DNA of 64,000 nt from an uncultured Clostridia bacterium (GTDB lineage: Bacteria > Bacillota > Clostridia > Christensenellales > UBA1242): the NCBI GenBank assembly GCA_944377165.1, contig CALWEJ010000002.1, positions 2,912-66,911 on the forward strand, read 5' to 3'. The position numbers were made by a program, and so were the translations under genes. The notes beneath the pieces are model-generated. The model was not told the DNA's origin and did not search any database. It was given only the letters and a program-made list of their open reading frames with translations. This document shows, piece by piece, positions 605-18,652 of this stretch (the stretch's first letter is position 1; every line of letters starts with the position of its first letter).

Positions 605-696
605 TGCATTTTTGGAAAAGGATAGTGCTCTCTAAAATTGAAAAGAAAAAATCGCTAAATCCCTTTATTTATAAGGCTTTTAGCGATTTTGTTTTA

Positions 697-742
697 TGGA
701 GCTAATGACGGGACTTGAACCCGTGACCTCCGCCTTACCAAG
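697..742 (-). pseudogene. Orphan 3' half of a tRNA-Thr(GGU) gene (anticodon loop to CCA)
   Basis: revcomp = CTTGGTAAGGCGGAGGTCACGGGTTCAAGTCCCGTCATTAGCTCCA. It has the 3' anticodon stem GGCGG, T arm ACGGG/TTCAAGT/CCCGT, acceptor strand CATTAGC and CCA. It complements the 5' halves at 18514..18552 and 18614..18652. Confidence 0.85.
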
Positions 743-778
743 TATTGAATTTCACCTAAATAGGACTTGAACTCAAAG

Positions 779-811
779 CACAGGAAACCCTTATATTTCC
801 TGTGTTTTTTC
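779..811 (+). terminator. Hairpin plus T-run just inside the left end of element X
   Basis: CACAGGAAA(779-787)...TTTCCTGTG(796-804) followed by T6. It may insulate element genes from read-through. Confidence 0.4.
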
Positions 812-830
812 TTACTCCCAAAACTCTCAA

Positions 831-957
831 TTGTTGTCAATTTTCAAAAATCTGACAACAGTTGACAACAAAAGCCCCATTTTAACCCACCAAAACAACC
901 AATTTTTCCACCTAAAATCATCTAAACTCGCCTAAAACCGAACATCAAGTGTTGTCA
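831..957. repeat. X-type words TTGTTGTCA/TGACAACA (831-839 inverted, 853-860, 862-870, 951-957 inverted) plus inverted GATTTTAGGTGG (908-919)
   Basis: Read directly. The same words recur at the other end of the element (18180-18302). Confidence 0.6.
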
Positions 958-1008
958 GGAAGAAATTTAAATTATTTTTGCAAATTAGCAACAGAAATTT
1001 AATTAGTA

Positions 1009-1017
1009 TGTTATAAT
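1009..1017 (+). promoter_or_regulatory. Extended -10 (TGtTATAAT) upstream of ORF 1044
   Basis: TG at 1009-1010 and TATAAT at 1012-1017. The RBS AAGGAG precedes the ATG at 1044. Confidence 0.5.
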
Positions 1018-1043
1018 AAAAACAAATATAAGGAGATTTATTA

Positions 1044-2114
1044 ATGAATATCGAAAAAGTCAACAAAACTATCGAATTATATAAAGTTTATTTAGCAAAG
1101 CAAAATCAATCCAAAAATGATTTTATTGATAGAAAGGAAAGGATTGCTTATTATCAAAAGTTTAATAAAGAATGTCTTTTAAAATTAAGCGAAGATGACT
1201 TCGTTGAGTTTATTGGCAAATTATGGGCATCGGCTATGTATGGAAGTAAGAAATATTTAGCTGATCAAATGATTTCTAGCAATAAGGGATTTGACAATTT
1301 AAAATCCATGCTTGCAGAATTTATATATGGAAAGCAAGATTTATCTGTTAGGTGGGATAAATTTTTAAAAGAAGCAAAATTTTTTGGACCGTCATATATG
1401 AGCGAAATATTGGGATATGTGTATCCTAATGAATGTGCTCTTGCAAATAATCAAGTTATTAAAGCCCTTGATTATCTTGAAATGCCAAAAGTTCCACACT
1501 ATAATTATCAATTTACCGGCAAAAAATATTTAGAAATTTGTGATGTTGTTAAACAATTATCAATAAAATTAAAAAATGCAGGAGTAGAATGTGAAAATTT
1601 ACTAGCAGTAGATTATTATTTGTGGGAAGTGACAAGATTAACAAATGATAGTGTTGTTATTGAGAATAGCGAAGAAATCAAACCTGTTACAAATAAAGAT
1701 CAAGAATTTATACATAAAGAAATTATAGATAAAATAGTTGAAATTGGCAGTTTGCTTGGCTTTGATGCAAAGTCTGAGGTTAGAGTTGGAAAGGGTGCAG
1801 TTGTGGATGCTGTATGGAGTATCAACATTGGAAACATGGGACAAATAATGTATGTTTTTGAAGTCCAAACAAAAGGAAGTGTTGATAGCCTACTACTGAA
1901 TTTGCAAAAGGCCAACAACAATAAATCTGTTCAGGCGATAGTTGCAGTTTCTGATGAAACTCAATTAGTAAAAATTAAAAATGAGAGTGAAGAGGTTAAT
2001 AATTTGCGAGATTTAAAATTATGGGACTATAAAGATGTTTTAAAAGTTTATGATTCTTTAAATAACGCAATGAGTTCAATAAATAAATTAGGACTAGTTC
2101 CAAAAGGATTTTAA
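1044..2114 (+). CDS. Hypothetical protein with a C-terminal PD-(D/E)xK-like motif, first gene of the Type I R-M operon
   Basis: RBS AAGGAG. The stop lies 11 nt before hsdM. The C-terminus has GAVVDAVW...YVFEVQTKGS (a D...E-x-K pattern). Confidence 0.6.
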   Translation: MNIEKVNKTIELYKVYLAKQNQSKNDFIDRKERIAYYQKFNKECLLKLSEDDFVEFIGKLWASAMYGSKKYLADQMISSNKGFDNLKSMLAEFIYGKQDLSVRWDKFLKEAKFFGPSYMSEILGYVYPNECALANNQVIKALDYLEMPKVPHYNYQFTGKKYLEICDVVKQLSIKLKNAGVECENLLAVDYYLWEVTRLTNDSVVIENSEEIKPVTNKDQEFIHKEIIDKIVEIGSLLGFDAKSEVRVGKGAVVDAVWSINIGNMGQIMYVFEVQTKGSVDSLLLNLQKANNNKSVQAIVAVSDETQLVKIKNESEEVNNLRDLKLWDYKDVLKVYDSLNNAMSSINKLGLVPKGF

Positions 2115-2125
2115 GGAGAAAACAA

Positions 2126-3625
2126 ATGATTACAGGACAATTAAAAAATAAAATAGATGCAATATGGGATACATTCTTTGCTTCAGGTATTACTACTCCT
2201 CTTACAGTAGTTGAGCAAATCACATATTTATTATTCATCAAACTTTTAGATGACAACCAATTAAAAAAGGAAGCAACTGCTAGCATATTTAAAACTGAGG
2301 TAAAAAACCCTGTATTTAAAGATGGCAATTGGAAAAACCCTGAAACTGAAAAAGAAGTTCCATATAAAAATCTTCGTTGGAGTGTTTTCAAGAATTTAGA
2401 TACTCGTGAAATGTTTAACTTAATGAGAAACGATGTATTTGTATTTATTAAAAACATAAACACAGGTAAAGATTCTTCATATAGCAAATTTATGCAAAAT
2501 GCAATCTTTATGATTCCAAACGAAAGAACCCTTGCGAGAGTTGTTGAGGGCATTAACGGACTTGATTTGAACGATAAAGATGCTATGGGAGATGTTTATG
2601 AATATATCCTTGGCAAAATGGCAAGTTCAGGAATAAACGGACAGTTTAGAACACCAAGACACATTATAAGAATGATGGTTGAATTGATGCAACCTACATT
2701 AAAAGATGTTATTTGCGACCCAGCAATGGGTTCTGCAGGCTTTATTGTAGAAAGTGCAAAATATGTCAGCGAACACTACGAAAATGAATTATTAAAACAA
2801 GAAAATCAAGAAAAATATGCAAATAGTATGTTTTATGGCTTTGATACTGATCAAACAATGCTTCGTATTGGTGCAATGAACATGATGCTTCACGGTGTTG
2901 AAAATCCAAACATTGAACAAAGAGATTCTCTTTCAGAAGATAATACCGACAAAGATAAATACACAATGGTTTTAGCAAACCCACCATTTGCTGGAAGCCT
3001 TGAATATGCCGATGTTTCAAAAGATATTCTTGCTCTTACAAGAACAAAAAAGACTGAAATTCTATTCTTAAGTTTGTTTACTAGAATATTAAAAATCGGT
3101 GGAAGATGTGCTTCCATTGTTCCTGATGGAATTACAAACAATACTAACGATTCAGCGTATACAACAATCAGAAAGGAATTGGTAGAAAACCAAAAATTAG
3201 AGGCTGTGATATCAATGCCAAGTGGCGTATTCCAACCTTATGCTGGAGTTTCTACTGCTATTCTTATCTTCACAAAAACAAATGCTGGTGGGACTGATAA
3301 AGTTTGGTTTTACAATATGAAAGCAGATGGTTATCAACTTTCAAAGAAAAGAACTCCAATAAAAGAAAATGATATTCCTGATATCATAAATCGTTTTAGA
3401 AATCTAGAAGCTGAAGAATCAAGAACAAGAAAAGATCAATCGTTCTTTGTTTCAAAGGAAGATATTGTTAAAAATAATTATGTCTTAAACATCAATGATT
3501 TTATGGAAACTGAGAAAAAAGAAATCGAGATAGAATCTCCTCAGGAAATCATGAAAGACATTGACAAATTAGATGAAGAACTAGCAACTCTTAAACAAGA
3601 ATTAAAAGATTTGTTGGGAGTGTAA
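2126..3625 (+). CDS. hsdM: Type I restriction-modification system methyltransferase subunit M (N6-adenine)
   Basis: Has the HsdM N-terminal pattern (LFIKLLDD), SAM motif DPAMGSAGF and catalytic NPPF (VLANPPFAGS). Followed by hsdS after 3 nt. Confidence 0.9.
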   Translation: MITGQLKNKIDAIWDTFFASGITTPLTVVEQITYLLFIKLLDDNQLKKEATASIFKTEVKNPVFKDGNWKNPETEKEVPYKNLRWSVFKNLDTREMFNLMRNDVFVFIKNINTGKDSSYSKFMQNAIFMIPNERTLARVVEGINGLDLNDKDAMGDVYEYILGKMASSGINGQFRTPRHIIRMMVELMQPTLKDVICDPAMGSAGFIVESAKYVSEHYENELLKQENQEKYANSMFYGFDTDQTMLRIGAMNMMLHGVENPNIEQRDSLSEDNTDKDKYTMVLANPPFAGSLEYADVSKDILALTRTKKTEILFLSLFTRILKIGGRCASIVPDGITNNTNDSAYTTIRKELVENQKLEAVISMPSGVFQPYAGVSTAILIFTKTNAGGTDKVWFYNMKADGYQLSKKRTPIKENDIPDIINRFRNLEAEESRTRKDQSFFVSKEDIVKNNYVLNINDFMETEKKEIEIESPQEIMKDIDKLDEELATLKQELKDLLGV

Positions 3626-3628
3626 AAA

Positions 3629-4732
3629 ATGAAGATAAAATTAGGCGAAGCACTAAGGTATGAGCAACCAACAAAATACATAGTTGCTTCAGAGAAATAT
3701 AATGATTCGTATGCTACTCCTGTTTTAACGGCAGGCAAATCGTTTATCCTTGGTTATACAAATGAAGAATCAGGAATTTATGATAATCTACCTGTTATCA
3801 TATTTGATGATTTCACTACGGACATCAAATATGTAGATTTTCCGTTTAAAGTAAAATCTTCGGCAATGAAGATGTTGCAACCAGCAAATGAGAATTATAA
3901 TCTTAAATTCTTTTACTATTTAATAAAATATATGAATTTTCAACCAACGAGTCATCAACGACATTGGATATCAAAATTTGCTGAAATGGAATTTGATATA
4001 CCTGAAAGAGTAAAACAAGATCAAATCGTTGAGAAATTAGATAAATTGGTTGAAATGCAGTCAAAAAAGACTACTCAACTAAAAAAATATGACGATCTAG
4101 TCAAATCACAATTTATCGAGATGTTTGGAGATTTGAAAAACAATTCTAAAAACTTTGAATTAGCTACTATAAAAGATTATTTTCGTGTAGGCTCTAGCAA
4201 AAGGGTGTTTGAGAAAGATTGGACAAAATCAGGTGTTCCCTTTTATAGAGCTAGAGAAGTTGTTAAGTTATCTGAAAATGGCTTTGTAGATAATGAATTG
4301 TTTATATCCGAAAAAATGTATCAGGAGTATTCTATGAAGTATGGAAAACCTTGTGCTGACGATATAATTGTCACCGCAGTTGGAACTCTTGGTAAAACTT
4401 ACATTGTTAAACCGAACGATAAATTTTACTATAAAGACGGAAATATAATTCTTCTTCATAAGATAAATGATATATCATCTATTTATGTAAATTATCTTTA
4501 CCAGACCGATTTTATAAAAGATCAAATAATTAAAACTGCTAATGTAATTACAGTAGGAACATATACAATAAAAAATGCTCAAAACACACAAATAATAGTC
4601 CCACCAATTGAGTTGCAAAATCAATTTGCCGACTTCGTCAAACTCATCGATAAATTAAAATTTACTCTAAAAGAAGAGATAAAAAAACTACAAGAATGTT
4701 ATAATTCACTTATGAAAGAGTATTTTGAGTGA
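3629..4732 (+). CDS. hsdS: Type I R-M specificity subunit S (two TRDs)
   Basis: Two variable halves are separated by the conserved central SQFIEMFG and end in PPIELQNQFADFVKLIDKLK. Immediately downstream of hsdM. Confidence 0.85.
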   Translation: MKIKLGEALRYEQPTKYIVASEKYNDSYATPVLTAGKSFILGYTNEESGIYDNLPVIIFDDFTTDIKYVDFPFKVKSSAMKMLQPANENYNLKFFYYLIKYMNFQPTSHQRHWISKFAEMEFDIPERVKQDQIVEKLDKLVEMQSKKTTQLKKYDDLVKSQFIEMFGDLKNNSKNFELATIKDYFRVGSSKRVFEKDWTKSGVPFYRAREVVKLSENGFVDNELFISEKMYQEYSMKYGKPCADDIIVTAVGTLGKTYIVKPNDKFYYKDGNIILLHKINDISSIYVNYLYQTDFIKDQIIKTANVITVGTYTIKNAQNTQIIVPPIELQNQFADFVKLIDKLKFTLKEEIKKLQECYNSLMKEYFE

Positions 4733-4795
4733 GAAATCTAGAAAAATTAACAAAAAAATGCGATAATATTCTCATTTAAAAGGAGAAATATTATC

Positions 4796-5785
4796 ATGAA
4801 AGAAGAACTAATGACAAATATCGAGCAAGAAATGATGTCTGTGCTTGATAATGCACAAATGGAACAATTAAAAAGAGTGTTAAAACATTGTTTTTATAAT
4901 GTAAAAGTCACTTTTGAAGAACAAGACATCGAAAAAGAGTTAAACAACAACAAATTATTGGGCAGTTTTTTATCATCCAAGCATATTGAGGGTTGTTCAG
5001 CAAAATCATTAAAATATTACCGCTCAACAATAGAAAATATGTATAAAAGTGTTAAAAAACATGTAAAACACATTACAACTGACGATTTACGAGAATATTT
5101 AGACATTTATCAGAAGAAAAATAATGCAAGTAAAGTCACAATTGACAATGTTAGGCGCATATTTTCAAGTTATTTTGCTTGGCTTGAGGATGAAGATTAC
5201 ATTATTAAGAGTCCTGTTAGAAGAATCCATAAAGTTAAAACAGGTAAATCAGTAAAAGAAACTTATACCGATGAAATGCTTGAAATAATGCGTGATAGCT
5301 GTGAAAACATACGAGATTTAGCCATGATTGACCTGTTAGCATCAACAGGAATGCGTGTTGGAGAGTTGGTTACACTTGATATTACCGACATTGATTTTGA
5401 CAATAGAGAGTGTGTTGTTTTTGGCAAAGGCGACAAAGAAAGACGAGTTTACTTTGATGCAAGGACAAAAATACATCTTTCAAACTACATAAAAAGCCGA
5501 AAAGATGATAATCAGGCACTATTTGTTACTCTTCTCGCCCCTCACCAACGCTTAAAAATAAGCGGAGTTGAGATAAGATTGCGTGAATTAGGTAGAAAAC
5601 TAAATATTCCAAAAGTTCACCCACATAAATTCAGAAGAACACTCGCTACAAGGGCAATTGACAAAGGAATGCCAATAGAACAAGTCCAAAAATTGCTTGG
5701 TCATACAAAAATTGACACTACTTTGCAGTATGCAATGGTTGATGAAGCCAATGTTAAGCTTGCTCACAAGAAATATATTTGTTAG
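4796..5785 (+). CDS. Tyrosine recombinase (Xer/shufflon-type) embedded in the hsdS cluster
   Basis: Has ASTGMRVGEL (catalytic R), HPHKFRRTLAT (HxxR) and LLGHTKIDTTLQY (H...Y). RBS AAAGGAG. Confidence 0.85.
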   Translation: MKEELMTNIEQEMMSVLDNAQMEQLKRVLKHCFYNVKVTFEEQDIEKELNNNKLLGSFLSSKHIEGCSAKSLKYYRSTIENMYKSVKKHVKHITTDDLREYLDIYQKKNNASKVTIDNVRRIFSSYFAWLEDEDYIIKSPVRRIHKVKTGKSVKETYTDEMLEIMRDSCENIRDLAMIDLLASTGMRVGELVTLDITDIDFDNRECVVFGKGDKERRVYFDARTKIHLSNYIKSRKDDNQALFVTLLAPHQRLKISGVEIRLRELGRKLNIPKVHPHKFRRTLATRAIDKGMPIEQVQKLLGHTKIDTTLQYAMVDEANVKLAHKKYIC

Positions 5786-6354
5786 GTTTCAAATCACAAT
5801 TTATCGAGATGTTTGGGAATGTTTTTACTCAAAAAGCGGTACATACACTTGGAGATTATATTTCAGATAAAACTGATAAAGTAAAAAAAGATTATTTACA
5901 TGAAAATATTAAATATGTTGATATATCTTCAATAGATAATACTCAAAATGAAATTACTTCTTATACAACATACAAAACACAAGATAGACCATCAAGAGCT
6001 CAACAAATAGTTGAAGATGGAGATATTGTTATTTCAACAGTAAGGCCCAACTTAAACAACGTTGCAATGATAAAAGACGATTTTGAAAATATTGTAGCAT
6101 CAACAGGATTTTGTGTTTTAAAAAAGAATATGCAAGTAAATGAATATTTTATTTTTACGTTAGTAAAAGATTCTAGATTTGCTGATTATTTATCAAAATT
6201 AACAACGGGTGCTAGTTATCCAGCAGTTTCAAATAAATCTGTACTTAATTTTAAGATAGATATGCCACCAATCGAGCTCCAAAACAAGTTTGCTGAAATT
6301 GTTAAACACATCGATAAATTAAAATATAATGATGAGTTTATGGAGGTGGCATAA
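5779..6354 (+). pseudogene. Promoterless half-hsdS cassette (central repeat, one TRD, distal repeat)
   Basis: Begins at the conserved SQFIEMFG block exactly at the recombinase stop, with only a TTG in frame and no RBS. Residues 5-180 are identical to the C-terminal half of hsdS 6354..7490. Confidence 0.6.
5794..6325 (+). repeat. 532-bp perfect direct repeat, copy 1 (hsdS TRD cassette)
   Basis: By visual comparison, base-for-base identical to 6870..7401 (offset 1076 bp). The first mismatch is at 6326 vs 7402. Confidence 0.8.
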
Positions 6355-7490
6355 TGGAAATAAAGAACTTAAATGAAGTCTGTATGATCAATATGGGACA
6401 ATCTCCTGACTCTTCTAGTTATAATGACAAAAAAGAGGGTTTAGCGTTCTATCAAGGTAATGCGGATTTCGGAGAAATACATCCAACAACAAGAGTTTGG
6501 TGCAATAATCCAATAAAAATTGCAGAAAAAGATGATATTTTGATATCGGTTCGTGCTCCAATTGGTTCTATGAACATTGCAAACGAAAAATGTTGCATAG
6601 GTCGAGGGCTTGCTTCTATTAAACCAATAGATAAAAATGAATGCAATCAAAATTATTTGTATTATTTTCTAGAAAGTAAAGTCCCTTATATGCAAAGTAA
6701 AGGAACAGGTTCAACATTTAAGGCTATTAACAAAGGAATCTTGACTTCACTACAAATAAAATTGCCAAATATTAGAGAACAAGAAAAAATTTCATCAATA
6801 ATTTCTAAAATCAAAGCACAAATTCATAATAAAAAACTACAAATTAGAAAATATGATGAGCTCGTCAAGTCACAATTTATCGAGATGTTTGGGAATGTTT
6901 TTACTCAAAAAGCGGTACATACACTTGGAGATTATATTTCAGATAAAACTGATAAAGTAAAAAAAGATTATTTACATGAAAATATTAAATATGTTGATAT
7001 ATCTTCAATAGATAATACTCAAAATGAAATTACTTCTTATACAACATACAAAACACAAGATAGACCATCAAGAGCTCAACAAATAGTTGAAGATGGAGAT
7101 ATTGTTATTTCAACAGTAAGGCCCAACTTAAACAACGTTGCAATGATAAAAGACGATTTTGAAAATATTGTAGCATCAACAGGATTTTGTGTTTTAAAAA
7201 AGAATATGCAAGTAAATGAATATTTTATTTTTACGTTAGTAAAAGATTCTAGATTTGCTGATTATTTATCAAAATTAACAACGGGTGCTAGTTATCCAGC
7301 AGTTTCAAATAAATCTGTACTTAATTTTAAGATAGATATGCCACCAATCGAGCTCCAAAACAAGTTTGCTGAAATTGTTAAACACATCGATAAATTAAAA
7401 TTTCGTGAAACTATAACAAAATTAAAAAATCTATGTTATAATATTTTTAATATTATACAATCCAAAAACTTAAGTGAGGTAAAAAAATGA
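6354..7490 (+). CDS. hsdS: Type I R-M specificity subunit S, second full copy
   Basis: Has an N-terminal TRD, central KSQFIEMFG, a second TRD and distal IDKLK. RBS GGAGGTGG. The stop overlaps the hsdR start (ATGA). Confidence 0.85.
   Translation: MEIKNLNEVCMINMGQSPDSSSYNDKKEGLAFYQGNADFGEIHPTTRVWCNNPIKIAEKDDILISVRAPIGSMNIANEKCCIGRGLASIKPIDKNECNQNYLYYFLESKVPYMQSKGTGSTFKAINKGILTSLQIKLPNIREQEKISSIISKIKAQIHNKKLQIRKYDELVKSQFIEMFGNVFTQKAVHTLGDYISDKTDKVKKDYLHENIKYVDISSIDNTQNEITSYTTYKTQDRPSRAQQIVEDGDIVISTVRPNLNNVAMIKDDFENIVASTGFCVLKKNMQVNEYFIFTLVKDSRFADYLSKLTTGASYPAVSNKSVLNFKIDMPPIELQNKFAEIVKHIDKLKFRETITKLKNLCYNIFNIIQSKNLSEVKK
6870..7401 (+). repeat. 532-bp perfect direct repeat, copy 2
   Basis: Identical to 5794..6325. 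Confidence 0.8.
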
Positions 7491-10400: not shown

Positions 10401-10861
10401 CAGGAATGAAAACCTACGAACAAAAAGTTATTGATTACCTTGCAGAAAATAGTGATAAAGAAGTAATTCAAAAAATCAAAAATCTTGAAAAGATAAATGC
10501 AAACGATTTGAAAGAACTTGAAAATATCCTTTGGAATGAGCTTGGAACAAAAGAAGATTATTTCAAGTTTACCGAAAAAGAAAACTTAGCTGTATTTGTA
10601 AGATCTATTGTTGGTTTAGAACAGCAAGCAATCAACTTGAAGTTTGGACAATTCCTTGCAGAAAATGTCTTAAATTCAAGACAACAAGAATTTGTTAAAA
10701 CAATCATTAGTTATGTTAGAGAAAATGGAGATGTTACATTTGATAACCTTGTTAATAGTAGTCCATTTGATAACATTGACATAATTAGAATGTTTGGAGA
10801 TAAAATATATATCGTTCAAAAGATTGTTGAACAATTACATGGAGCAGTAATGTGTGCTTAA
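7487..10861 (+). CDS. hsdR: Type I restriction enzyme R subunit
   Basis: Has an N-terminal DUF4145-like FIRKIGNNAVH and a PD-(D/E)xK nuclease motif (CDYVLF...AVVEAKK). SF2 helicase motifs MATGTGKT and IIIDEAHRS are present, with a long C-terminal domain. Confidence 0.9.
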   Translation: MTNFEYLKELKDFKELYDFCDTSESFVLSRPDISASYSRKALEYLVKTIYMIKLNYVPQNATLFELVDNYMFASFVSDKETIASLHFIRKIGNNAVHNVKTTKAQALACLENLHFFVGEILISLGVIKDYPPFDKSLIIPQKETKTTSLPSQDIVINPDDVSKYKDKIKSDTVLQIKRTMPEAETRKLYIDCWLQEAGWDVLTIENQKLPAKAGIEIEVHGMPNDKGIGFCDYVLFGRDGKPLAVVEAKKKDVNPIKGENQAQLYANCLEKEYGVRPVVYYTNGYETKIIDGLGYPSRTIYGFHTIDELEALVQKQGKREITDFNVDTNIAGRPYQIMAIRSVCDHFNKMNRKALIVMATGTGKTRVSIALVDILKRNNFIKNVLFLADRIELVNQAKKNFVKLMPSESVCVLSDKSAKKDLDARLVFSTYQTIINYIDNDKKTFGIGRFDLIIIDEAHRSIFNKYRAIFHYFDSLLVGLTATPRNEIDKNTYTTFGLDDGIPNFHYELDEAVKDRYLVSYNVYDRTSEIMKRGFKYSDLSPEEIAEIETEYAITMDGEYNLDYDVLGEDKQVSGNQLFKKFYNRDTIKKVLKELMRDGLKVNSGENIGKTIVFAPNHKTAEMVVEEFKKLYPQYGNDYCALIDNYVTYASNLIERFGTRDKLPQIAVSVDMLDTGIDVPDVLNLVFFRAVKSKIKFLQMIGRGTRLCENIRVFSPSRDFFEGRISEPDMNYQQDKQGFYIFDYCDNFRFFDNFKEKATGKQSLNLTQRIFNMKSELIFGLQALEYQRDNFCVNYRNSLIKQVRADVNKLSPMQILVKESLQYVDKFKADETWQYLSKLDLQELKAHITELVSPNADDELAKIFDLKILNIEVSLIDKSQDSTKSQNAIIVIAQALSNMTTIPQIRPHMDTIIKLQTREFWDNITIEILEDLRKELRDLIKFIPDGEKSKVYVIDINDTITDNGNRAGVNIAGMKTYEQKVIDYLAENSDKEVIQKIKNLEKINANDLKELENILWNELGTKEDYFKFTEKENLAVFVRSIVGLEQQAINLKFGQFLAENVLNSRQQEFVKTIISYVRENGDVTFDNLVNSSPFDNIDIIRMFGDKIYIVQKIVEQLHGAVMCA

Positions 10862-10867
10862 TATTTA

Positions 10868-10906
10868 AACACTCAATCATAATGATTGGGTGTTTTTCTT
10901 TTTTAT
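10868..10906 (+). terminator. Rho-independent terminator after hsdR
   Basis: AACACTCAATCAT/AATGATTGGGTGTT hairpin followed by a T-rich run. Confidence 0.7.
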
Positions 10907-11009
10907 ATTATTAAAAACGGATTTCAAGAGTTTATAAGTTAAAAACTTTGTCGAAATCCCAACACAATATCAAACTATATGCTATAATACTTCTATAAGG
11001 AAAATAAGT

Positions 11010-12197
11010 ATGAGTTTTTTTGATGACGATGATTTTTATTCAAGTGACCCCGCCGAAAGAGATATGTATAGCAAAATAAGAACTGAAAAGCGAATTAAAA
11101 GAAAAATTCAAAAACAAAAAGCTATTAAGAAAAGAAATAAAACATATCTCAAAGGAAGACGAGGTGTTAGACTTTATTATGACATAACAAAGAGAGATGT
11201 TCCTAAAGACGCTAATGCCCCGGATTATGGTATGATTTATGACGAATCTATTGGTAGATATAGATATACAGATTATGATATCGAAGATGAGGATGAAGAT
11301 GATGATTTTTATGAAAATTTAGGAAAAAGTAAGCCTGTGGAAAGGGTTTTGTGTAAAACTCCACCATTAGAAGATTATGAAGAATGGACCGATGATGACG
11401 AAGAAGATGAATATGAAGGATTTGATGAGGATTATGCTCAAGATATAGATGATTTTAAAAATCCCGAAAGACAAATCAAATGTGTATTTAAGCAAAAATT
11501 AAGAAGAGATAAATTATTTGGATATTTAAAATACCTTAAAGGTAGAAAAGTTTTAAATAGAGATTTGGCATGGAAATTTGCAGTAACAAAAAGAACAATA
11601 CAGTCAGATTTAAGATGGCTTGAGAATAATGGTTTTATTGTAACCCAGAAGAACAAAACATATAAAGGAAAACAAACTAAAAACTCATACATAGTTAATC
11701 TTGAAAAAAGAAAAGGGTTACCATGTGAAGATACTCGGTTGGGTATTGTTATTATTGCAAAGCAAGATAATGAATATTATGTTTTAGCAAAAACAAATTA
11801 CAAATCTAAAGATGAGAATCCTAAAAGATTTATTCCAATTAAAGAATGTTATTTTAAATTGCCACAAACTCAATTAAAAGTAGAAAGCAGGATTGAACAT
11901 AAATCTAATTTATTAGTTTCCAAATTGTTTGAAACAAATATAGAAGATAAATTTCAAGGACATGTTTATACAACTAGATTTATTAAGATAAAAAAGTATA
12001 GAGATGATATGTATAAATGGGTTGTTGAAAAAAGTTCTGTGAAAATACTCTACTCAATGTATGTTGTTGACAACTTAAATCAAATCCCTGTAGGATATAA
12101 GTGGATCAAGTTAAAAACAGCAAACCGATATTTTACTCAAACCATAGATAACAAATGTCTTAATAAAGTAAAACTATGTTGGGGTGAAATAAAATGA
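11010..12197 (+). CDS. Hypothetical protein: highly acidic N-terminal region plus a winged-helix HTH (DeoR-like)
   Basis: D/E tracts DIEDEDEDDDFYE and WTDDDEEDEYEGFDEDYAQDIDDF. HTH-like RKVLNRDLAWKFAVTKRTIQSDLRWLENNGFI. May be a replication or regulatory protein of the element. Confidence 0.6.
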   Translation: MSFFDDDDFYSSDPAERDMYSKIRTEKRIKRKIQKQKAIKKRNKTYLKGRRGVRLYYDITKRDVPKDANAPDYGMIYDESIGRYRYTDYDIEDEDEDDDFYENLGKSKPVERVLCKTPPLEDYEEWTDDDEEDEYEGFDEDYAQDIDDFKNPERQIKCVFKQKLRRDKLFGYLKYLKGRKVLNRDLAWKFAVTKRTIQSDLRWLENNGFIVTQKNKTYKGKQTKNSYIVNLEKRKGLPCEDTRLGIVIIAKQDNEYYVLAKTNYKSKDENPKRFIPIKECYFKLPQTQLKVESRIEHKSNLLVSKLFETNIEDKFQGHVYTTRFIKIKKYRDDMYKWVVEKSSVKILYSMYVVDNLNQIPVGYKWIKLKTANRYFTQTIDNKCLNKVKLCWGEIK

Positions 12198-12248
12198 GTT
12201 TAATATCCATATTTTAGAAAAAATTAAAAATTTTCAAAAAATTTTTTT

Positions 12249-12274
12249 ATGCCCGTATTTACGGGCATTTTTTA
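12249..12274. terminator. Bidirectional hairpin terminator
   Basis: ATGCCCGTA-TTT-ACGGGCAT, with a T-run (TTTTTTT) on the 5' side and T6 after it. Confidence 0.65.
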
Positions 12275-12600
12275 ATTCATCAAATTACTTGAATAACAAA
12301 ATAATACAAAATATTACATAAATTCAAGGTGTAAATTCTTGAAAAAACCTAATATAGTGAAGGGGCAACAAGAAAAAACATATGTCTAACAAAGTAAAAA
12401 TTTAGTGTGCACAATTACTTAGTTGGTATAATAAATTCTTTCTTTGTTAACCTTGTAAGAGAAAGAGAAAATTATAAAAGAAAAGAGAAGTTTTTTGCGA
12501 GCTTCTTTTTTGTATGTCTGTTAATCTTCGCCTGCAGAGATTATAGATATCAAGGATTATAGAACGAAAAAATAATCAAAATAATTGGAGGAAATTAAAA

Positions 12601-12858
12601 ATGATAAAAATTAAAACGGAATTTATGACAAGAGTTAGAGATGTAGATGTAGCAAATAAATTAAATGAACAATTTAGAAAAAGCGGGTTAAAAAGTTTCA
12701 ATGAATTTATTAACCAAATACTTGAGGATTATGTTAATAGAGGATATTATTTTAATGAAATCTACGACAAAGTCCTTATTGCCGACGAATGTATGAATGC
12801 TATGCTCGATATGGTCAATAAGATTCAAAGAGATATTGATAGACAATATAATTCTTAA
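12601..12858 (+). CDS. Ribbon-helix-helix protein, probable relaxase accessory (MobC-like role)
   Basis: RBS GGAGG. An N-terminal beta-strand then helix pattern (IKTEFMTRV...SFNEFINQILEDYV). Sits directly upstream of and overlapping the relaxase ORF. Confidence 0.6.
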   Translation: MIKIKTEFMTRVRDVDVANKLNEQFRKSGLKSFNEFINQILEDYVNRGYYFNEIYDKVLIADECMNAMLDMVNKIQRDIDRQYNS

Positions 12859-14029
12859 GTGTCGGTATTATAAGCATAATTCTCAATATAAAGAAAATGA
12901 TAGAAATTTAAAACACCGCGAGTTCGTGAGTTGTCAAAATAGTTATAGTTATCTTAACTATGTTCAAACAGGAGCAACCGAAAATGCTCCGAAAGATTAT
13001 GAACAGTATATTGGCAATAGAGAAAAATCTTGTGGTGTTTTTAATGAGAAAGGATTGCTCTCTGAAGAACAACGTAAGGAATTAAGACATCAATTACAAA
13101 ATACTGAAAGTGTAATTTGGGATATTGTAATTTCTTTTCGCACAGAATTCGGAGATAGTTATTGTAGAGATTATGAACAGGCATATAACTTCTTAGTTAA
13201 GGAATTGCCAAAGTTTTTCAAGAAATGTGGATTGAATAGCAGTAATATCGTGTGGTATGCAGGCCTACACGAGAACACTGAAAACAAACATATTCACCTG
13301 TCGTTTTTTGAAAAAAAACCTAAATATTTTGCCAATGGTGGCAAGCTAAAATATCATTCGGGAAAACTACCGAAAGATGTTTTAATCGACTCAAAATTTA
13401 TATTTGAAAAAGCACTAACCAACCCCACTGCTCAACTACTAAAAGATAGAAAAGATTTATATGACAGAATTAATGTGTCTTTAGATAAAAGAACTGTTAG
13501 TAAGAAAGCAAAGAGATTGTTGTTGGAGCTTTATAGAGAGTTGCCAAAAGATGGTCGTATTGGATATGCTAGTGAGAATATGGATAATGTTAGAAAGAAG
13601 GTTGATGATGTTACGGATTATTTTTTGATGAGAAATAAGCAAATCCAAGAGTCTTATATCACATTCAAAAAGGATTGTATTTGCTTGGAAACTTGGAAGA
13701 TATCTCGTGGCTTTGAAAAAGAAAGTTCTTATATGAAAGATATGAAAAGACGACTTGGAAATCTAATTATTTTTGCTGCGCTTGATGTTGGGCATATCCA
13801 CGATGAGATTGAAAAATTGAGTATTAAAACTGCGAATTATAAAGCATATAAAAAGAAGCTTAGAGATAAAGAATGGAATAAAATTTTAAATCTCTGGAAG
13901 CAAACAACTTATGAGCACCAGCAAGAAATGGATTTCTTTATGTCTTTCCATGAGAAACTGGAAAGATACTCTAAACAGCAAAAATATGAGATGGTTAGAA
14001 GCCGAAGAAATAGAGATTTTGAGATGTAG
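12797..14029 (+). CDS. Relaxase / mobilization nuclease (MobL/MOBP-like); start codon uncertain
   Basis: Three-histidine motif LHENTENKHIHLSFF, and an N-terminal YLNYVQTGATE...GVFNEKG typical of MobL-type relaxases as I recall them. The first ATG overlaps the upstream ORF by 62 nt. Confidence 0.65.
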   Translation: MLCSIWSIRFKEILIDNIILKCRYYKHNSQYKENDRNLKHREFVSCQNSYSYLNYVQTGATENAPKDYEQYIGNREKSCGVFNEKGLLSEEQRKELRHQLQNTESVIWDIVISFRTEFGDSYCRDYEQAYNFLVKELPKFFKKCGLNSSNIVWYAGLHENTENKHIHLSFFEKKPKYFANGGKLKYHSGKLPKDVLIDSKFIFEKALTNPTAQLLKDRKDLYDRINVSLDKRTVSKKAKRLLLELYRELPKDGRIGYASENMDNVRKKVDDVTDYFLMRNKQIQESYITFKKDCICLETWKISRGFEKESSYMKDMKRRLGNLIIFAALDVGHIHDEIEKLSIKTANYKAYKKKLRDKEWNKILNLWKQTTYEHQQEMDFFMSFHEKLERYSKQQKYEMVRSRRNRDFEM

Positions 14030-14060
14030 AGAGTTATAGATTTAATAAAACAGGATAAGC

Positions 14061-14150
14061 GGAAGAAACAAATTTTCAGCAAAATCACTCTTAAATGCCC
14101 TAAATATAAGCATTTTTGAGTGATACACTTTGCTGAATTAATATTCTTCC
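14061..14150. repeat. 90-bp imperfect palindrome between relaxase and xis; candidate oriT or regulatory cruciform
   Basis: GGAAGAA(14061-67)/TTCTTCC(14144-50), TTCAGCAAA(14075-83)/TTTGCTGAA(14129-37) and TCACTC(14085-90)/GAGTGA(14118-23). Confidence 0.4.
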
Positions 14151-14281
14151 TTTATTTTACGAGAAATGGGAATGCCCATTTTCGTTTATGATGGTAAACC
14201 ATCACTTTTACATTGCTCGATGCAAGTAAATTTTAGAATTTATAGAAAGGAGAAACTGATTATGAAGGAGTATTAATTTTA

Positions 14282-14533
14282 ATGTTAAAACAAGAAGATT
14301 TACAAGCAGAGATGTTGATTTCTGCAGAAGCTAAAAGACTTGCAGATAGATATAACAAAGATTATTTAGACTGTGAGGATTTAATGAAAATTACAGGGCT
14401 TGGCAAAGGCAATGTAAGAACACTTATGAATAGATATGATTTCCCAACCACCAATGTCGGTAAGCGCAAAGTTATTAGTGTTATGGCTTTCGCAAGATGG
14501 GCTTACTTTCAAGACAACAGGAGGAAAAACTAA
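14282..14533 (+). CDS. Excisionase-family / MerR-like HTH DNA-binding protein
   Basis: 83 aa with LMKITGLGKGNVRTLMNRYDFPTTNVGKRKVISVMAFARW (HTH_17-like). The stop overlaps the integrase ATG (TAATG). Confidence 0.65.
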   Translation: MLKQEDLQAEMLISAEAKRLADRYNKDYLDCEDLMKITGLGKGNVRTLMNRYDFPTTNVGKRKVISVMAFARWAYFQDNRRKN

Positions 14534-15972
14534 TGGCTAAGAAAAGAAAAAATTCCAGAAGAGCAAATGGCGAAGGAAGCATTGTTCAAAGAAAAGATGG
14601 TCGTTGGTGTGGAGTTGTAACTCTTGGATATAAACCAGATGGAAAGATAAATAGAAAGTCAGTTTATGGGCATTCACAAGCTGAAGTTTTAGAGAAAATG
14701 AGCGTGCTAAAACATAGACTTGTAACAGGTCCACAAGTATCTTCAACAACTGCTTTGGTTGGCGAAACAATGAAAAATTGGTTAAGAATTTTCAAAAAGC
14801 CAATGGTGTCATCTCGCACATTTGAAAGCAACATTAGAACATTTAAAAATCACATTCTTCCAGCGATTGGAAATATGAAAATAAATGAAGTTAACACAAA
14901 CATTGTTCAAGCGATTTTGACCAAATCTTTGCAAGACCACAAAGGAAGGTCAAACACACCAAAGAGAATAAAGTTTTTGTTAAATCAATTTTATGAACAC
15001 TTAATTGAGCAAGGACTTGCCTATGATAATCCTACCCTAAAATGTAAAGTGAGCAATAGATATAAAAAGACATATATGGATAGCAAAGGTCAACACAAAA
15101 ACAATGAAAACTACAAAGCAATTCCTGTTGCTGAAAGAGCAAGATTTATTCGTGCACTTGATGATGGCCCAGATATTATTAAACCGCTTTCGCTTGTTAT
15201 GATGTTGGCTTCACTTCGTATTGGCGAAGCACTAGCTTTAAAATGGGAAAACATAGATTTTGAAAAAGGTGCTTTGTTTGTTGAACAAGGTTTAACCGAA
15301 GATGTTGAATTTGATAACGAACTTAACATCGTTGGCAGAAAAAATATTATTTCAAGCACTAAAACAACTTGCAGTAAACGAGCGATAAAAATGCCACAAC
15401 TAGTAATTGATGCTTTGCTACAATGGCGAAAAATACAATGGTGCAAAGAACAAGTTAAAGGCAAAACCTTAACAAAGTCCACAAACCTTGTGTTTTGCAA
15501 CGATGATGGCTCGATACGCAGTTATGATGCAACTCGTCGAGTATTTGATAGGTTTGCCAAGAAACACGGTTTTAGGCAAGAATTTGGGCTTCATTGCCAC
15601 ATGCTAAGACAAACATTCTCAAACATGCAAATTGAGAATAAAAGAAATATTAAAGATGTTCAGCATTTGCTTGGACATAAAGACGCAAAGACTACCCAAT
15701 TGCACTATAACTCAGTAATCGACCAAGAACTCGACTACGAAGGTGCAGAATTATTGGATAGTCTTTTTAATGACACAACTCTCTATGATGGTGAAGAACA
15801 TATCAAAAAAGATGTTCCTGCCTATCACATAGACAACAATACCTTTAATGAAGAAAAACTGAAAACTTATGAAGAAATGACCGATGATGAACTTGACCGA
15901 CAATATGAAGAACTTAAACGCCAACGAGAAGAACGAAGAAAGCGTAGAAAAGAAAAAGATTTCGAGATGTAA
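14533..15972 (+). CDS. Tyrosine-type site-specific integrase
   Basis: The ATG at 14533 is preceded by AGGAGG. N-terminal ANGEGSIVQRKDGRWCGVVTLGYKPDGK (SAM-like arm-binding domain). Catalytic ASLRIGEAL, HMLRQTFS and LLGHKDAKTTQLHY. Confidence 0.85.
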   Translation: MAKKRKNSRRANGEGSIVQRKDGRWCGVVTLGYKPDGKINRKSVYGHSQAEVLEKMSVLKHRLVTGPQVSSTTALVGETMKNWLRIFKKPMVSSRTFESNIRTFKNHILPAIGNMKINEVNTNIVQAILTKSLQDHKGRSNTPKRIKFLLNQFYEHLIEQGLAYDNPTLKCKVSNRYKKTYMDSKGQHKNNENYKAIPVAERARFIRALDDGPDIIKPLSLVMMLASLRIGEALALKWENIDFEKGALFVEQGLTEDVEFDNELNIVGRKNIISSTKTTCSKRAIKMPQLVIDALLQWRKIQWCKEQVKGKTLTKSTNLVFCNDDGSIRSYDATRRVFDRFAKKHGFRQEFGLHCHMLRQTFSNMQIENKRNIKDVQHLLGHKDAKTTQLHYNSVIDQELDYEGAELLDSLFNDTTLYDGEEHIKKDVPAYHIDNNTFNEEKLKTYEEMTDDELDRQYEELKRQREERRKRRKEKDFEM

Positions 15973-15994
15973 TTGTAGAAAAATATTTTTAATA

Positions 15995-16003
15995 TGTTAT
16001 AAT
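15995..16003 (+). promoter_or_regulatory. Extended -10 (TGtTATAAT) for the two-gene module
   Basis: TG at 15995-96 and TATAAT at 15998-16003, then RBS AGGTGAGG and the ATG at 16021. Confidence 0.5.
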
Positions 16004-16020
16004 GTAGGTGAGGTTGAATT

Positions 16021-16704
16021 ATGGAAGAGTTAAAAAATTTAAACAAAATATGTACAAGCAGGAAACGAGGAATTTATAAACAGTGGATATATAAAAAAGA
16101 GGATTTTATGAAGGTTTGTGATTATATGCAGAAAATAAATTACTCGATTCAAGACTTAAATAATTTAAAAAATGATTTAACCACATTTCATCCTAAAAAT
16201 GTTATATATTCGATTGTTCTTGTTGATTGGATAGTTGAAGCATTTTATAAAATATATAATTCAATAAATAATCAGATTATAGAAAAATTTGTATATAGTG
16301 ATGAAGAATTATTTATTAAAGCAACTAAATATTTTAGAGCAATAAGGTCATTTATCGTTGCTCATCCTCTATCAACAACAAGACATGATTCGTTTGGGTT
16401 TGACGGAAATTATATTTGTGTTGATATAAGAAATAATAATGGGATATTGAAGTTTAAAGGCGAAAGATTTTATTACTTATTAGACTATAATGGTTTAGAA
16501 ACAAAATACAATGAAAAATGTGATTTTTATTTGTTTTGTTATTCAGATAAAGATGATAATATGAGGTTCTTTAGAATTATAGGGTGTAATTTTGATGATA
16601 TATATAAAACAGCAAGAATTTATATAGATAAACTTTATTCTTTAGATAAGTTTTTATCTAAGCAGAAAAAGATTATATATAGTAAGGAGAATAAAGATGG
16701 ATAA
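16021..16704 (+). CDS. Hypothetical protein with a possible HEPN-like Rx5H motif
   Basis: A good RBS. FRAIRSFIVAHPLST (R-x5-H) lies in a predicted helical context. The stop overlaps the start of the next ORF. Confidence 0.6.
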   Translation: MEELKNLNKICTSRKRGIYKQWIYKKEDFMKVCDYMQKINYSIQDLNNLKNDLTTFHPKNVIYSIVLVDWIVEAFYKIYNSINNQIIEKFVYSDEELFIKATKYFRAIRSFIVAHPLSTTRHDSFGFDGNYICVDIRNNNGILKFKGERFYYLLDYNGLETKYNEKCDFYLFCYSDKDDNMRFFRIIGCNFDDIYKTARIYIDKLYSLDKFLSKQKKIIYSKENKDG

Positions 16705-18118
16705 AAACAATAGTTTTAATAAGTTTGTTTCGTCTTTAAAAAAATATCCAACTAATGAAGTAGCAAAATTATTTAGTAAATATGAACGAGATTGTTATAA
16801 AGATTCAGAAAAAGGCATATTAACAGAAAAAGAATTCGATTATAAGTTTTATAAACAAAAAATATATATTAAACCTTGGCTATTTCCAGAAATCATTTAT
16901 TATAGCACATCTAATAATGACCATCGGAACGGTACCATTGTAGAAGATGATGCATGGGATATTTATGGTTTATATCAAAATTATGATATGGATAAAGAAG
17001 ATAATCATATTAAAAAATCAAATACGGATGAAAACATGGTATTTACTTATATTCTTTATGGAATTGCCCAACAACAATTTATATATCAAAAGTCTCATAG
17101 GTATATAAATCGTTTTAGTCGAAACTATCATTTATTGAAAGATATAGAAATAGATGGTGAATCATTGTCTACAATAGTAAAAGAAAAATTTTCCATATCA
17201 TTAAAGAAATATGTTGAGATGTTGACATTAATAACAATATTAAGCATGAAAAATGTTGTTATCAATACTGAACAAATATTATCCATTGTAAAAGATAAAG
17301 ACCTATATTTAGATATTATCGATTATTTGTCGGTTGACTACTATGAATGCAGAAATACAAAATTAAAACAAGATGTTTTTAAAGTAAAACCTATTTTACA
17401 TTCCCAGATGGATGAATATATTGTGCCTAGTTTTTGTCTTATGATGTATAATTTGGGAGATAACTTATATTGGTTACTTAAAGATAAATTTTCCAAAGGA
17501 AATAAATTTGTAGTTAAATTTGGCGAGATTTTTGAAAATTATGTTTACGAAGTCTTACTAAAACATTTTTCTGAAAAAGTTGTTAGAATTCCTCGAGTAG
17601 AAGGCAAAAAAAGTGCTGATTTTTACATTGAAAGCGATAAGTTTGTGTATTTAATTGAAGTAAAAAGTGGTGTTGCAAAATTAGATAGTAAAACTGCCGT
17701 TTTAAATCAAAAATCGTTAGATGATTTTATAAAAAACAATGTTACTGATGCAATACTTCAAATTGATGCTTCTGCACAAAAATTTAAAAACAAGAGGATA
17801 GTACCAATAGTGGCAAATTTTGATGTTTTATTTACAGAAGATTCTTTATTGCACAATATTGAGAATTTGTGTTGTGTTAAGAATTTTAATATAAAAGAAA
17901 CTATTTTATTAGGAATTGATGATTTTGAAAATTTTCTTTATACATATAAGAATCTTGAAAAGATTGATAAACTAATTGAAGATGTTTTAAAAGATAAAAA
18001 TTTATTGGGAGGAGTAAAAATATATAAATTGTTAGAGAATGTTAGAGGACATAAAAATTATTATTTCAAAGATGTTTTTAATATAAATAAGAATATATTA
18101 AATCAAAAGACTGATTAA
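16697..18118 (+). CDS. Hypothetical protein with a C-terminal PD-(D/E)xK nuclease-like motif
   Basis: RBS AAGGAG. GEIFENYVYEVL...KKSADFYIESDKFVYLIEVKSG (D...E-x-K). Overlaps the upstream ORF by 8 nt (ATGGATAA). Confidence 0.6.
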   Translation: MDKNNSFNKFVSSLKKYPTNEVAKLFSKYERDCYKDSEKGILTEKEFDYKFYKQKIYIKPWLFPEIIYYSTSNNDHRNGTIVEDDAWDIYGLYQNYDMDKEDNHIKKSNTDENMVFTYILYGIAQQQFIYQKSHRYINRFSRNYHLLKDIEIDGESLSTIVKEKFSISLKKYVEMLTLITILSMKNVVINTEQILSIVKDKDLYLDIIDYLSVDYYECRNTKLKQDVFKVKPILHSQMDEYIVPSFCLMMYNLGDNLYWLLKDKFSKGNKFVVKFGEIFENYVYEVLLKHFSEKVVRIPRVEGKKSADFYIESDKFVYLIEVKSGVAKLDSKTAVLNQKSLDDFIKNNVTDAILQIDASAQKFKNKRIVPIVANFDVLFTEDSLLHNIENLCCVKNFNIKETILLGIDDFENFLYTYKNLEKIDKLIEDVLKDKNLLGGVKIYKLLENVRGHKNYYFKDVFNINKNILNQKTD

Positions 18119-18133
18119 TTTCAGTCTTTTTTC
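18107..18133 (+). terminator. Rho-independent terminator
   Basis: AAGACTGA-TTAATT-TCAGTCTT followed by a T-run. The stem overlaps the stop codon. Confidence 0.7.
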
Positions 18134-18179
18134 TTGTAAAAGTTAATGATTTTTGTGAAATAAATGTAGTACTACAAAT

Positions 18180-18302
18180 TTGACAACAAACAGGGTGATT
18201 TTAGGTGGTTTTTGAGGGGTTTATATAAATAATTTTTTGAGTTGGAACTTTGAGCAAGATTTGAGAGTGAATTTTAATGAAAATTGTTGTCAATTGTTGT
18301 CA
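18180..18302. repeat. X-type words: TTGACAACA (18180-88), GATTTTAGGTGG (18197-208), TTGTTGTCA x2 (18284-92, 18294-302)
   Basis: Read directly. These are inverted relative to the copies at 831-957. Confidence 0.6.
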
Positions 18303-18375
18303 AAAATGCAAAATAGTTCGAATCTATCCCAGGAATTGAACAATGAAAAAACCCTTATAAAATAAGGGTTTTCTA

Positions 18376-18450
18376 TGGAGCTGGTGACGGGAATCGGACC
18401 CGTGACCCCCACCTTACCAAGGTGGTGCTCTACCGCTGAGCCACACCAGC
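18376..18450 (-). tRNA. tRNA-Thr (anticodon GGU), element-borne, CCA encoded
   Basis: revcomp = GCTGGTGTGGCTCAGCGGTAGAGCACCACCTTGGTAAGGTGGGGGTCACGGGTCCGATTCCCGTCACCAGCTCCA. All four stems pair. The T loop is UCCGAUU, which is non-canonical at position 55. Confidence 0.85.
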
Positions 18451-18513
18451 ATAGTGCTAAATATTGAGTTGTTTTTGCTAATTTTTTGGTTAGTTTTCGA
18501 GTGCCAACCAAGT

Positions 18514-18552
18514 CTTACCAAGGCGGTGCACTACCGACTGTGCTACATTAGC
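18514..18552 (-). pseudogene. Orphan 5' half of tRNA-Thr(GGU), copy A
   Basis: revcomp = GCTAATGTAGCACAGTCGGTAGTGCACCGCCTTGGTAAG (acceptor strand, D arm, 5' anticodon stem, loop). It is followed by non-tRNA sequence. Confidence 0.85.
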
Positions 18553-18613
18553 ATATTCAGTTTTTGAGTGAAATTTTATTGTTTTTCAAGTGGAAAAATT
18601 TGCCATTTTTTAT

Positions 18614-18652
18614 CTTACCAAGGCGGTGCACTACCGACTGTGCTACATTAGC
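18614..18652 (-). pseudogene. Orphan 5' half of tRNA-Thr(GGU), copy B (probable original host half)
   Basis: Identical to copy A and exactly 100 bp away. The identity extends 3 nt into the 5' flank. Confidence 0.85.

Follow-up and report, generated by a model that had tools for sequence, protein, structure and literature searches.

Stacked mobilizable islands that very probably replace, rather than restore, a split tRNA-Thr(GGU) gene in gut Clostridia

Introduction

Islands that integrate into tRNA genes normally regenerate the gene that they split (PMC4383910, Islander database). The stretch of DNA under study, hereafter referred to as the window, comprises 64,000 nucleotides of contig CALWEJ010000002.1 from an uncultured Clostridia bacterium. 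Within it lies a 17.8-kb integrative mobilizable element (IME), designated X (743..18513, plus strand), which is bordered by the separated halves of a tRNA-Thr(GGU) gene and which carries an intact, divergent gene for the same tRNA. It is very probable that X and an older island, designated W, are stacked islands that replace tRNA-Thr(GGU) instead of restoring it.

The split tRNA gene

The sole tRNA called by ARAGORN in the 64-kb window is a tRNA-Thr(GGT) at 18376..18450 on the minus strand, which is followed by a hairpin and a T-run at ~18340-18372. On the same strand, a tRNA 5' half, GCTAATGTAGCACAGTCGGTAGTGCACCGCCTTGGTAAG, occurs at 18652..18614 (half B) and again at 18552..18514 (half A), and the two copies are identical at 39/39 positions. 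The 3' half, CTTGGTAAGGCGGAGGTCACGGGTTCAAGTCCCGTCATTAGCTCCA, extends from position 31 of the tRNA to the CCA end and lies at 742..697, also on the minus strand. Read along that strand, the order is half B, 61 nt, half A, 63 nt, the intact tRNA, 17.6 kb, and the 3' half. The 9-mer core, CTTACCAAG, is present in exactly four copies in the window, namely at 734-742 (in the 3' half, at the left junction of X), 18413-18421, 18514-18522 (in half A, at the right junction of X), and 18614-18622 (in half B). From dinucleotide shuffles 0.27 copies are expected, and 0 of 100 shuffles reached four.

When half A is joined to 697-742, a 76-nt tRNA-Thr(GGU) results in which 7/7 acceptor and 5/5 anticodon-stem pairs are formed. 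Control halves from swapped contexts, in contrast, give 9-10 of the 12 pairs. Such counts, which cover the acceptor and anticodon stems (12 pairs in total), were used for matching halves because ARAGORN was too lenient and called tRNAs from swapped halves as well. The halves, the four cores, the intact divergent tRNA, and the joined 76-nt product had all been proposed, at these positions, in a first-pass annotation of the window, and all were confirmed. The joined tRNA, referred to below as the W tRNA, matches the tRNA of X at 62/75 positions.

No tRNA was called by ARAGORN at 697-742 or at 18514-18652, and thus no functional tRNA has been rebuilt at either junction. Indeed, the DNA past the core at both X junctions is unrelated to a tRNA. 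The arm that adjoins the core (ACTTGGTTGGCAC...) does not constitute a tRNA 3' part; at a distance of 63 bp, the intact tRNA stands as a gene of its own. The displaced 3' fragment of the target is found at the far end of X (697-742), with equivalents in L001-L006 and L105-L108 (L numbers denote loci in other contigs). Assembly of the halves in trans, in the manner of a split tRNA, was rejected; the longest complementarity between the RNA following half A and that preceding the 3' half is 8 nt.

Two spacers separate these features on the minus strand, the X arm of 63 nt (18451-18513), which runs from the X tRNA to the crossover core, and the W arm of 61 nt (18553-18613). The first-pass annotation had seen one layout at both junctions, with related sequence in the spacers. 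The lengths stand, but the relatedness does not. The two spacers align with a score of -5, as compared to -3.7 ± 4.1 for shuffled sequences, and have length and position alone in common. This result bears on a different explanation, namely that there is no second element and that the 100-bp repeat at 18514-18652 arose by local tandem duplication or as an artefact of assembly. The 39-nt halves are identical, metagenome assemblers break or mis-join at such repeats, and several related contigs do end at the repeat (L017, L015). A simple tandem duplication of a 100-bp unit was nonetheless rejected, given that the spacers are unrelated. An artefact is difficult to reconcile with the recurrence of the W arm and its half in independent assemblies and metagenome-assembled genomes (MAGs; L008, L029, L034, L036), and both versions with the presence of a W-type module at the other end of X. 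This explanation is considered very improbable.

Element X in other contexts

Copies of X were located by an exact-protein look-up of its first and last genes, which led to many independent metagenome contigs. The left end of X is identical from TATTGAATTT inward in the window, in L001-L006, and in L105-L108, and it abuts at least nine different tRNA-Thr 3' halves exactly at the shared TTACCAAG. At the right, the sequence is constant as far as ...CAACCAAGT; all copies have the tRNA, the 63-nt arm, and the core in common, beyond which come 5' halves specific to each context. The arm stays with X in every context, and the tRNA-Thr(GGT) is invariant in all contexts that retain it. In the two contigs that span all of X, designated A (L001 and L007) and B (L002 and L011), the flanking halves again pair at 12/12 positions, with swapped controls at 9-10/12. 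The ends of X are thus exact to the base in many contexts, and X is a discrete element with the boundaries first assigned to it. The many different flanks are consistent with horizontal mobility.

The cut site is always inside the anticodon loop, TTGGTAA, of tRNA-Thr(GGU). The target in L004 has a T at position 39 instead of the G that otherwise follows the loop, and the identity that must be shared is thus confined to the anticodon loop, TTGGTAA. It is into this loop of tRNA-Thr(GGU) that X integrates, leaving the gene unrebuilt and bringing its own copy, as the first-pass annotation had held.

These comparisons also decide whether 18376-18450 could be a host gene restored in the classical manner, with a host 5' part and an element 3' part, in which case both 5' halves would be element-borne. 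Classical layouts are found among distant integrase relatives (25-30% identity), and L013, perhaps also L045, looks like a host-5'/element-3' hybrid. In X, however, the whole tRNA together with the 63-nt arm is invariant, and it is the DNA past the core that varies with the host. Moreover, the 5' half beside X varies from one context to the next, and its pairing partner is the 3' half on the far side of X. Classical restoration is refuted for X by the invariant tRNA and arm and by the context-specific pairing halves, and it is scarcely credible as an account of the locus.

Three contexts of X show further details. In L013 (11540-11620), the core links the 3' half of the X tRNA to another, degenerate 5' half, with 3/7 acceptor pairs and no tRNA called; this hybrid may be a product of recombination through the core within the X tRNA. 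In a further contig, D, the 3' half left of X (L005:7493-7547; L008:11790-11930) is a mosaic, its acceptor strand, CATCAGC, fitting the outer 5' half (GCTGATG) and its anticodon stem fitting the inner 5' half (CCGCC), which suggests half-swapping between islands. Finally, the tRNA split by X in contig A (GCTTACG...CGTAAGC; L001:9645-9699, L007:11790-11830) looks host-borne and is identical to the tRNA of the L115-L117 island family (L115:12644-12719). A core, an arm, and a degenerate half lie upstream of this "host" tRNA. Judging from such alleles, "host" tRNAs may be former element tRNAs.

The older island W

The DNA to the left of X has the character of the tRNA-proximal end of another island. 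Positions 470-742 (~270 bp) are 85-91% identical to the corresponding end of the W-type elements in L028, L029, L030, and L036. Such elements carry an integrase that is 38-41% identical to that of X; the integrase denoted W' shows 41% identity. The segment contains four copies of TGACACCTA on the plus strand at 471..603, the only exact copies in the window and candidate arm-type integrase sites of W. A hairpin with a T-run (AAATCGCTAAA...TTTAGCGATTTT; 648..693, minus strand), likely a terminator 3' of the W tRNA, follows, and the same module is present in L034-L036. The window edge truncates the last cargo gene of W, of which the 3' part is present (3..452, plus strand). Its frame is open from the edge, such that the open reading frame (ORF) at 30-452 is the tail of a longer frame. 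No homologue of this gene was found among 5.8 billion proteins, nor a Pfam or PADLOC match.

If X entered the tRNA of an older element, as the first-pass annotation argued, that tRNA should exist in uninterrupted form, and the search for sites with an intact GCTAATG...CATTAGC tRNA-Thr was successful. The intact gene is present in L034, L035, and L036, followed by the W module, and the adjoining integrases are 38-40% identical to that of X. In L034 and L036 the intact W tRNA is preceded by the W arm, which is of the same type as in L008 and L029, and by an orphan 5' half. When X is deleted from the window in silico, the result is colinear with L034 across the junction (positions 7299-7535), with 97% identity over 237 bp. 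By this alignment L034 is, in effect, the X-empty site, and the tRNA split by X (half A plus 697-742) can be assigned to an older W-type element. The sister strain in L017 shares the chromosomal flank and a half that is the same as half B, after which a different arm begins, and the locus is thus a hotspot for several element types.

Two observations concern W-type islands elsewhere. The island beside X in contig k87_479549 (L005:4423-7266) encodes a 947-aa single-chain fusion of SIR2-APAZ and a short pAgo, with PADLOC matches to Aga_SIR2-PNTD (1.6e-177) and pAgo (2.9e-138). In IMG/VR, a scan for the W left end led to phage contigs without a tRNA-Thr. Two IMG/VR viral contigs (L109, L110) encode an integrase that is 50% identical to the W-type enzyme, and in the 5-7 kb downstream neither a tRNA-Thr nor core-flanked halves were detected; the family thus has phage relatives.

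Proposed mechanism of integration

The order of events that would account for the locus is as follows. The lambda-like tyrosine integrase of X would carry out recombination between the 9-bp core, CTTGGTAAG, and its identical counterpart in a tRNA-Thr(GGU) gene. The core corresponds to the anticodon loop and its closing pair, and strand exchange is expected inside the 7-nt loop; by analogy with anticodon-loop integrases, the X enzyme probably catalyzes the exchange within these 7 bp. Since attP shares the core alone with the target, the target would be split and not rebuilt, with the 5' half at one junction and the 3' half at the other. The complete tRNA-Thr(GGU) gene appears to be part of attP, flanked on one side by the core, 63 bp away, and on the other by the putative arm-type repeats. 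After integration it would be co-oriented with the old gene and ~100 bp downstream of its start. The element tRNA most likely takes over decoding, presumably as part of a transcript that starts at the resident promoter, runs through the orphan half and the arm, and is trimmed by RNase P.

As the element tRNA carries the same core, it would become the next target for integration. In the window, an older W-type island would have split the resident gene, leaving half B (18614..18652) as its 5' half, and would have brought the W tRNA. X would then have split the W tRNA into half A and 697-742 and brought its own. Successive islands would accrete in this manner, with orphan 5' halves piling up ~100 bp apart.

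With regard to expression, a promoter-like site (TAGACA-17-TATAAT, 11/12 consensus matches) is located at 18763..18791 on the minus strand, ~110 nt upstream of half B. No terminator was found between half B and the X tRNA. Given the site upstream and no terminator in between, read-through from a resident promoter is plausible, albeit unproven.

Each insertion contains three cores in direct repeat, and alternative recombination is thus to be expected. Products consistent with it are the L013 hybrid, the mismatched halves of contig D, and L025, in which an arm and core adjoin another left end.

Recursion and spread

The stacking seen in the window is not unusual. For the host survey, one genome per species was scanned with an alignment of the X and W' integrases, and the hosts of X- and W'-like integrases are Clostridia and Christensenellales MAGs from guts. 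The integrase family numbers more than 500 protein clusters at E <= 1e-60. A clade with 31-98% integrase identity has an intact element tRNA-Thr(GGT) and one to three orphan 5' halves upstream. The period of these arrays is 89-101 nt in L019-L021, L024, L027-L029, L034-L036, L115, and L116, and 133-145 nt in the two most distant loci, L039 and L042. Element tRNAs are themselves cut by further islands in L009, L010, L012, L014, L022, L030, L112-L114, and L117. After de-duplication across all loci, ~28 orphan-5' junctions comprise 21 distinct halves and at least 10 types of arm, and 16 orphan-3' junctions comprise 9 different element left ends. Target recursion, another proposal of the first-pass annotation, is thus both real and common. 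Integrases with only 25-30% identity lie beside ordinary tRNAs of many isotypes without orphan halves, and the replacement layout therefore looks derived from the classical one.

An alternative to live nesting is that the orphan units are scars, such that half B and the W arm would be remnants of an island whose body is largely or wholly gone. An island might exit through the core in its own tRNA instead of through the attL core, or similar tandem islands might collapse by homologous recombination. Either route would leave an orphan half plus arm behind, together with a hybrid tRNA. The three directly repeated cores of each insertion, the hybrid in L013, and the mismatched pair in contig D are in keeping with such events. 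In contig A, host genes lie directly beside the 3' half although a core, an arm, and a degenerate half are present upstream of the "host" tRNA, and in L020 and L115 the short-read assembly runs without a break through three orphans. For the window itself, however, the W tRNA-proximal module with its repeats and terminator and an open cargo frame reach the window edge (1-696), and in contig D the 3' half has a complete W-type integrase and cargo to its left. Scarring is unlikely to be the explanation of half B and its arm. It is a supplement to the nested model and not a replacement for it.

Several observations weigh against stacked replacing islands as the explanation of the window. L020 and L115 may hold more orphan units than island bodies, so that part of the pattern may be scars and not live nested islands. 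The left end of W and the 3' partner of half B fall outside the window, and for five W-type integrases the 10 kb upstream were searched and yielded no W-type left end. In contig D the inner 5' half and the 3' half form an A:C mismatch, and halves do get shuffled. Promoter-like matches in the region upstream of half B number 11, as compared to 7.1 ± 3.1 by shuffling, which is not above expectation, and a consensus scan of the arms found no promoter there, though a weak or non-consensus one may exist. Finally, no exact match to the excised-circle attP junction of X was found in IMG/VR or the JGI metagenomes; X is absent from these collections, and hence the search is not a test. The left end of X alone is likewise absent from the JGI metagenome set.

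Other arrays add detail. At L034 (7540-7640) the third, outermost orphan 5' half has decayed to GCTAATGTAGTCAATTCGGCAATGCACCGCC and its core is reduced to CTTGGTAT, and it still lies ahead of a W-type arm. Its decay indicates that orphans are non-functional relics, and arrays appear to age from the outside in. At L025 (9780-9900) the element tRNA, arm, and core (TTTGGTAAG) are followed by DNA resembling the left end of another element, with no 5' half; this left end abuts a 3' half in L114. The arrangement may represent a tandem attP x attL integration that keeps both tRNAs intact. In L032 (5504-5580) and L033 (9516-9592), integrases 43-44% identical to that of X lie beside tRNA-Ile(GAT), with no orphan halves detected, and there may have been a target switch within the integrase family.

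Relationship to known systems

Replacement in place of restoration, of which the first-pass annotation was aware of no earlier description, is in fact known. It was published in 2024 as tRNA-dependent lysogeny in actinobacteriophages, including Fionnbharth/K4, Cluster L, and Gaia (Guerrero-Bustamante & Hatfull, mBio 2024; PMC10865867). In those phages a short core is used, the tRNA is not reconstructed, and a phage tRNA of the same isotype is required for lysogeny. The Lj965 prophage of Lactobacillus johnsonii is cited there as a possible further, earlier case, and the authors speculated that a second plasmid may integrate at a plasmid-borne tRNA serving as attB (PMC10865867).

The islands described here share with these phages a tyrosine integrase, an attB in a tRNA gene, a short common core (9 bp in X versus 8-17 bp in the phages), and the lack of a rebuilt functional tRNA. 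X thus shows the three structural hallmarks, attB within a tRNA, no rebuilt tRNA, and a tRNA of its own, with catalysis presumably provided by its integrase. It acts like a tRNA-dependent lysogeny system but is not a prophage. The carriers in the published work are phages, whereas X is a non-phage mobilizable island with defence-type cargo in gut Clostridia. The islands target tRNA-Thr(GGU). Their replacement tRNA belongs to attP, has the same orientation as the target, and is separated from the core by 61-63 bp. They form natural multi-layer arrays with orphan 5' halves ~100 bp apart, and the one site is contested by many element families. A requirement for the element tRNA, as known from the phages, may hold for the islands as well.

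Classical tRNA islands likewise have an integrase gene near the tRNA-proximal end and an anticodon-loop crossover, with the newest island nearest the promoter side and displaced 3' fragments marking the ends of older islands. Their attP, however, carries a tRNA 3' part at the crossover. The target is consequently regenerated and there are no orphan 5' halves, whereas X leaves its target unregenerated and supplies a whole gene. Islands and prophages targeting tRNA and tmRNA genes, anticodon-loop crossover, and tandem arrays are reportedly treated by Williams (2002, NAR 30:866). IMEs of Firmicutes and Bacteroidota, for example NBU1, resemble X in having an integrase, an Xis, a relaxase, and a tRNA target without type IV secretion system (T4SS) or phage genes. 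To our knowledge NBU1 brings no replacement tRNA. Its integration site, as noted in PMC10865867, is the 3' end of tRNA-Leu, whereas X uses the anticodon loop.

In a search of the literature, no report was found of non-phage islands with the replacement strategy, of a clostridial Thr(GGU) system, or of orphan-half arrays in nature. The strategy itself is known; what is new is the type of carrier (non-phage defence islands), the tRNA inside attP, and the scale of natural recursion. tRNA-dependent integration is extended here from actinobacteriophages to non-phage mobilizable defence islands in gut Firmicutes, which are abundant and for the most part uncultured. A portable attB leading to recursive accretion of islands at one locus, formerly speculation, is visible in natural genomes. 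Island-mapping tools expect a regenerated tRNA and a displaced 3' fragment and will thus mis-bound or miss these islands, and many orphan 5' halves await tRNA annotators. Compact integration vectors for Clostridia, consisting of a short core and a self-contained tRNA, would be possible.

A broader reading can be put forward tentatively, its chances being somewhat less than even: in these gut Clostridia the working tRNA-Thr(GGU) would routinely be a mobile-element allele, and the tRNA gene would serve the islands in three ways. As a whole gene it would compensate for the one destroyed, give the island a hold on its host, because imprecise loss of the island removes the tRNA, and provide a portable landing pad. 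The ~100-bp orphan units would then document past integrations layer by layer. Exchange of tRNA halves would result from recombination between alternative cores, and the islands would thereby drive turnover and chimerism of a core translation gene.

Gene content of element X

The genes of X that are given with coordinates here are on the plus strand. The integrase (14497-15972, 491 aa) matches Pfam Phage_integrase, SAM_3, and Int_M and the phrog_1 integrase family (5e-48), and its R...HxxR...H...Y region aligns with Xer/Int structures. It is preceded by an HTH_17 Xis-like protein (14282-14533; Pfam). The mobilization module (11010..14029), defined by Pfam, NCBIfam, and PHROG matches, contains a weak Rep-like protein with a winged helix-turn-helix (11010-12197), an 85-aa protein (12601-12858), and a MobL/MobP-type relaxase (12797-14029; Pfam MobL 1.7e-22, with the NCBIfam MobP2/P3 matches below the curated cut-off). 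A PHROG replication-initiator match in the module has an E-value of 1e-5. No capsid, tail, terminase, or lysis genes were found in X with Pfam and PHROGs, and none of 12 ORFs of at least 70 aa matched a T4SS or a type IV coupling protein. By gene content X would thus qualify as an IME, having an integration/excision module and a relaxase without a mating-pair apparatus of its own.

The 9-mer TTGTTGTCA has five exact copies in the window, all near the two ends of X. Repeats of this type lie at the left end (831..957) and at the right end (18181..18302), the latter on the tRNA side of attP; they are candidate arm-type integrase sites, and confinement to the ends of X is the pattern expected of such sites.

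Cargoes of these islands look defensive. That of X is a type I restriction-modification (R-M) system (2126..10861; Pfam) with hsdM, three hsdS genes, an embedded tyrosine recombinase, and hsdR, before which one further protein without assigned function is encoded. Two more cargo genes (16021..18118; 227 and 473 aa) have no significant match in Pfam, PADLOC, NCBIfam, or PHROGs. The W' cargo is a SIR2-APAZ/pAgo fusion, and islands nested in X encode Fic, RnlA/RnlB, AbiEii, and a YobI-ATPase. An island that cuts an element tRNA in L117 (13943-15085) encodes a match to Viral_Rep (PF02407, circovirus-type Rep).

The recombinase embedded within the hsdS genes of X (4796-5785) is of the shufflon type. 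Among otherwise identical copies of X (window 3629-7490; L001-L006, L105-L108), the surrounding hsdS genes vary in number, order, and length. In the window they encode 367 aa on one side of the recombinase and 191 and 378 aa on the other; the corresponding layouts are 362 and 201 aa in L001, and 326 and 375 aa followed, past the recombinase, by 206 aa in L002. To judge from these rearrangements, the hsdS genes look like an active shufflon that would confer phase-variable R-M specificity.

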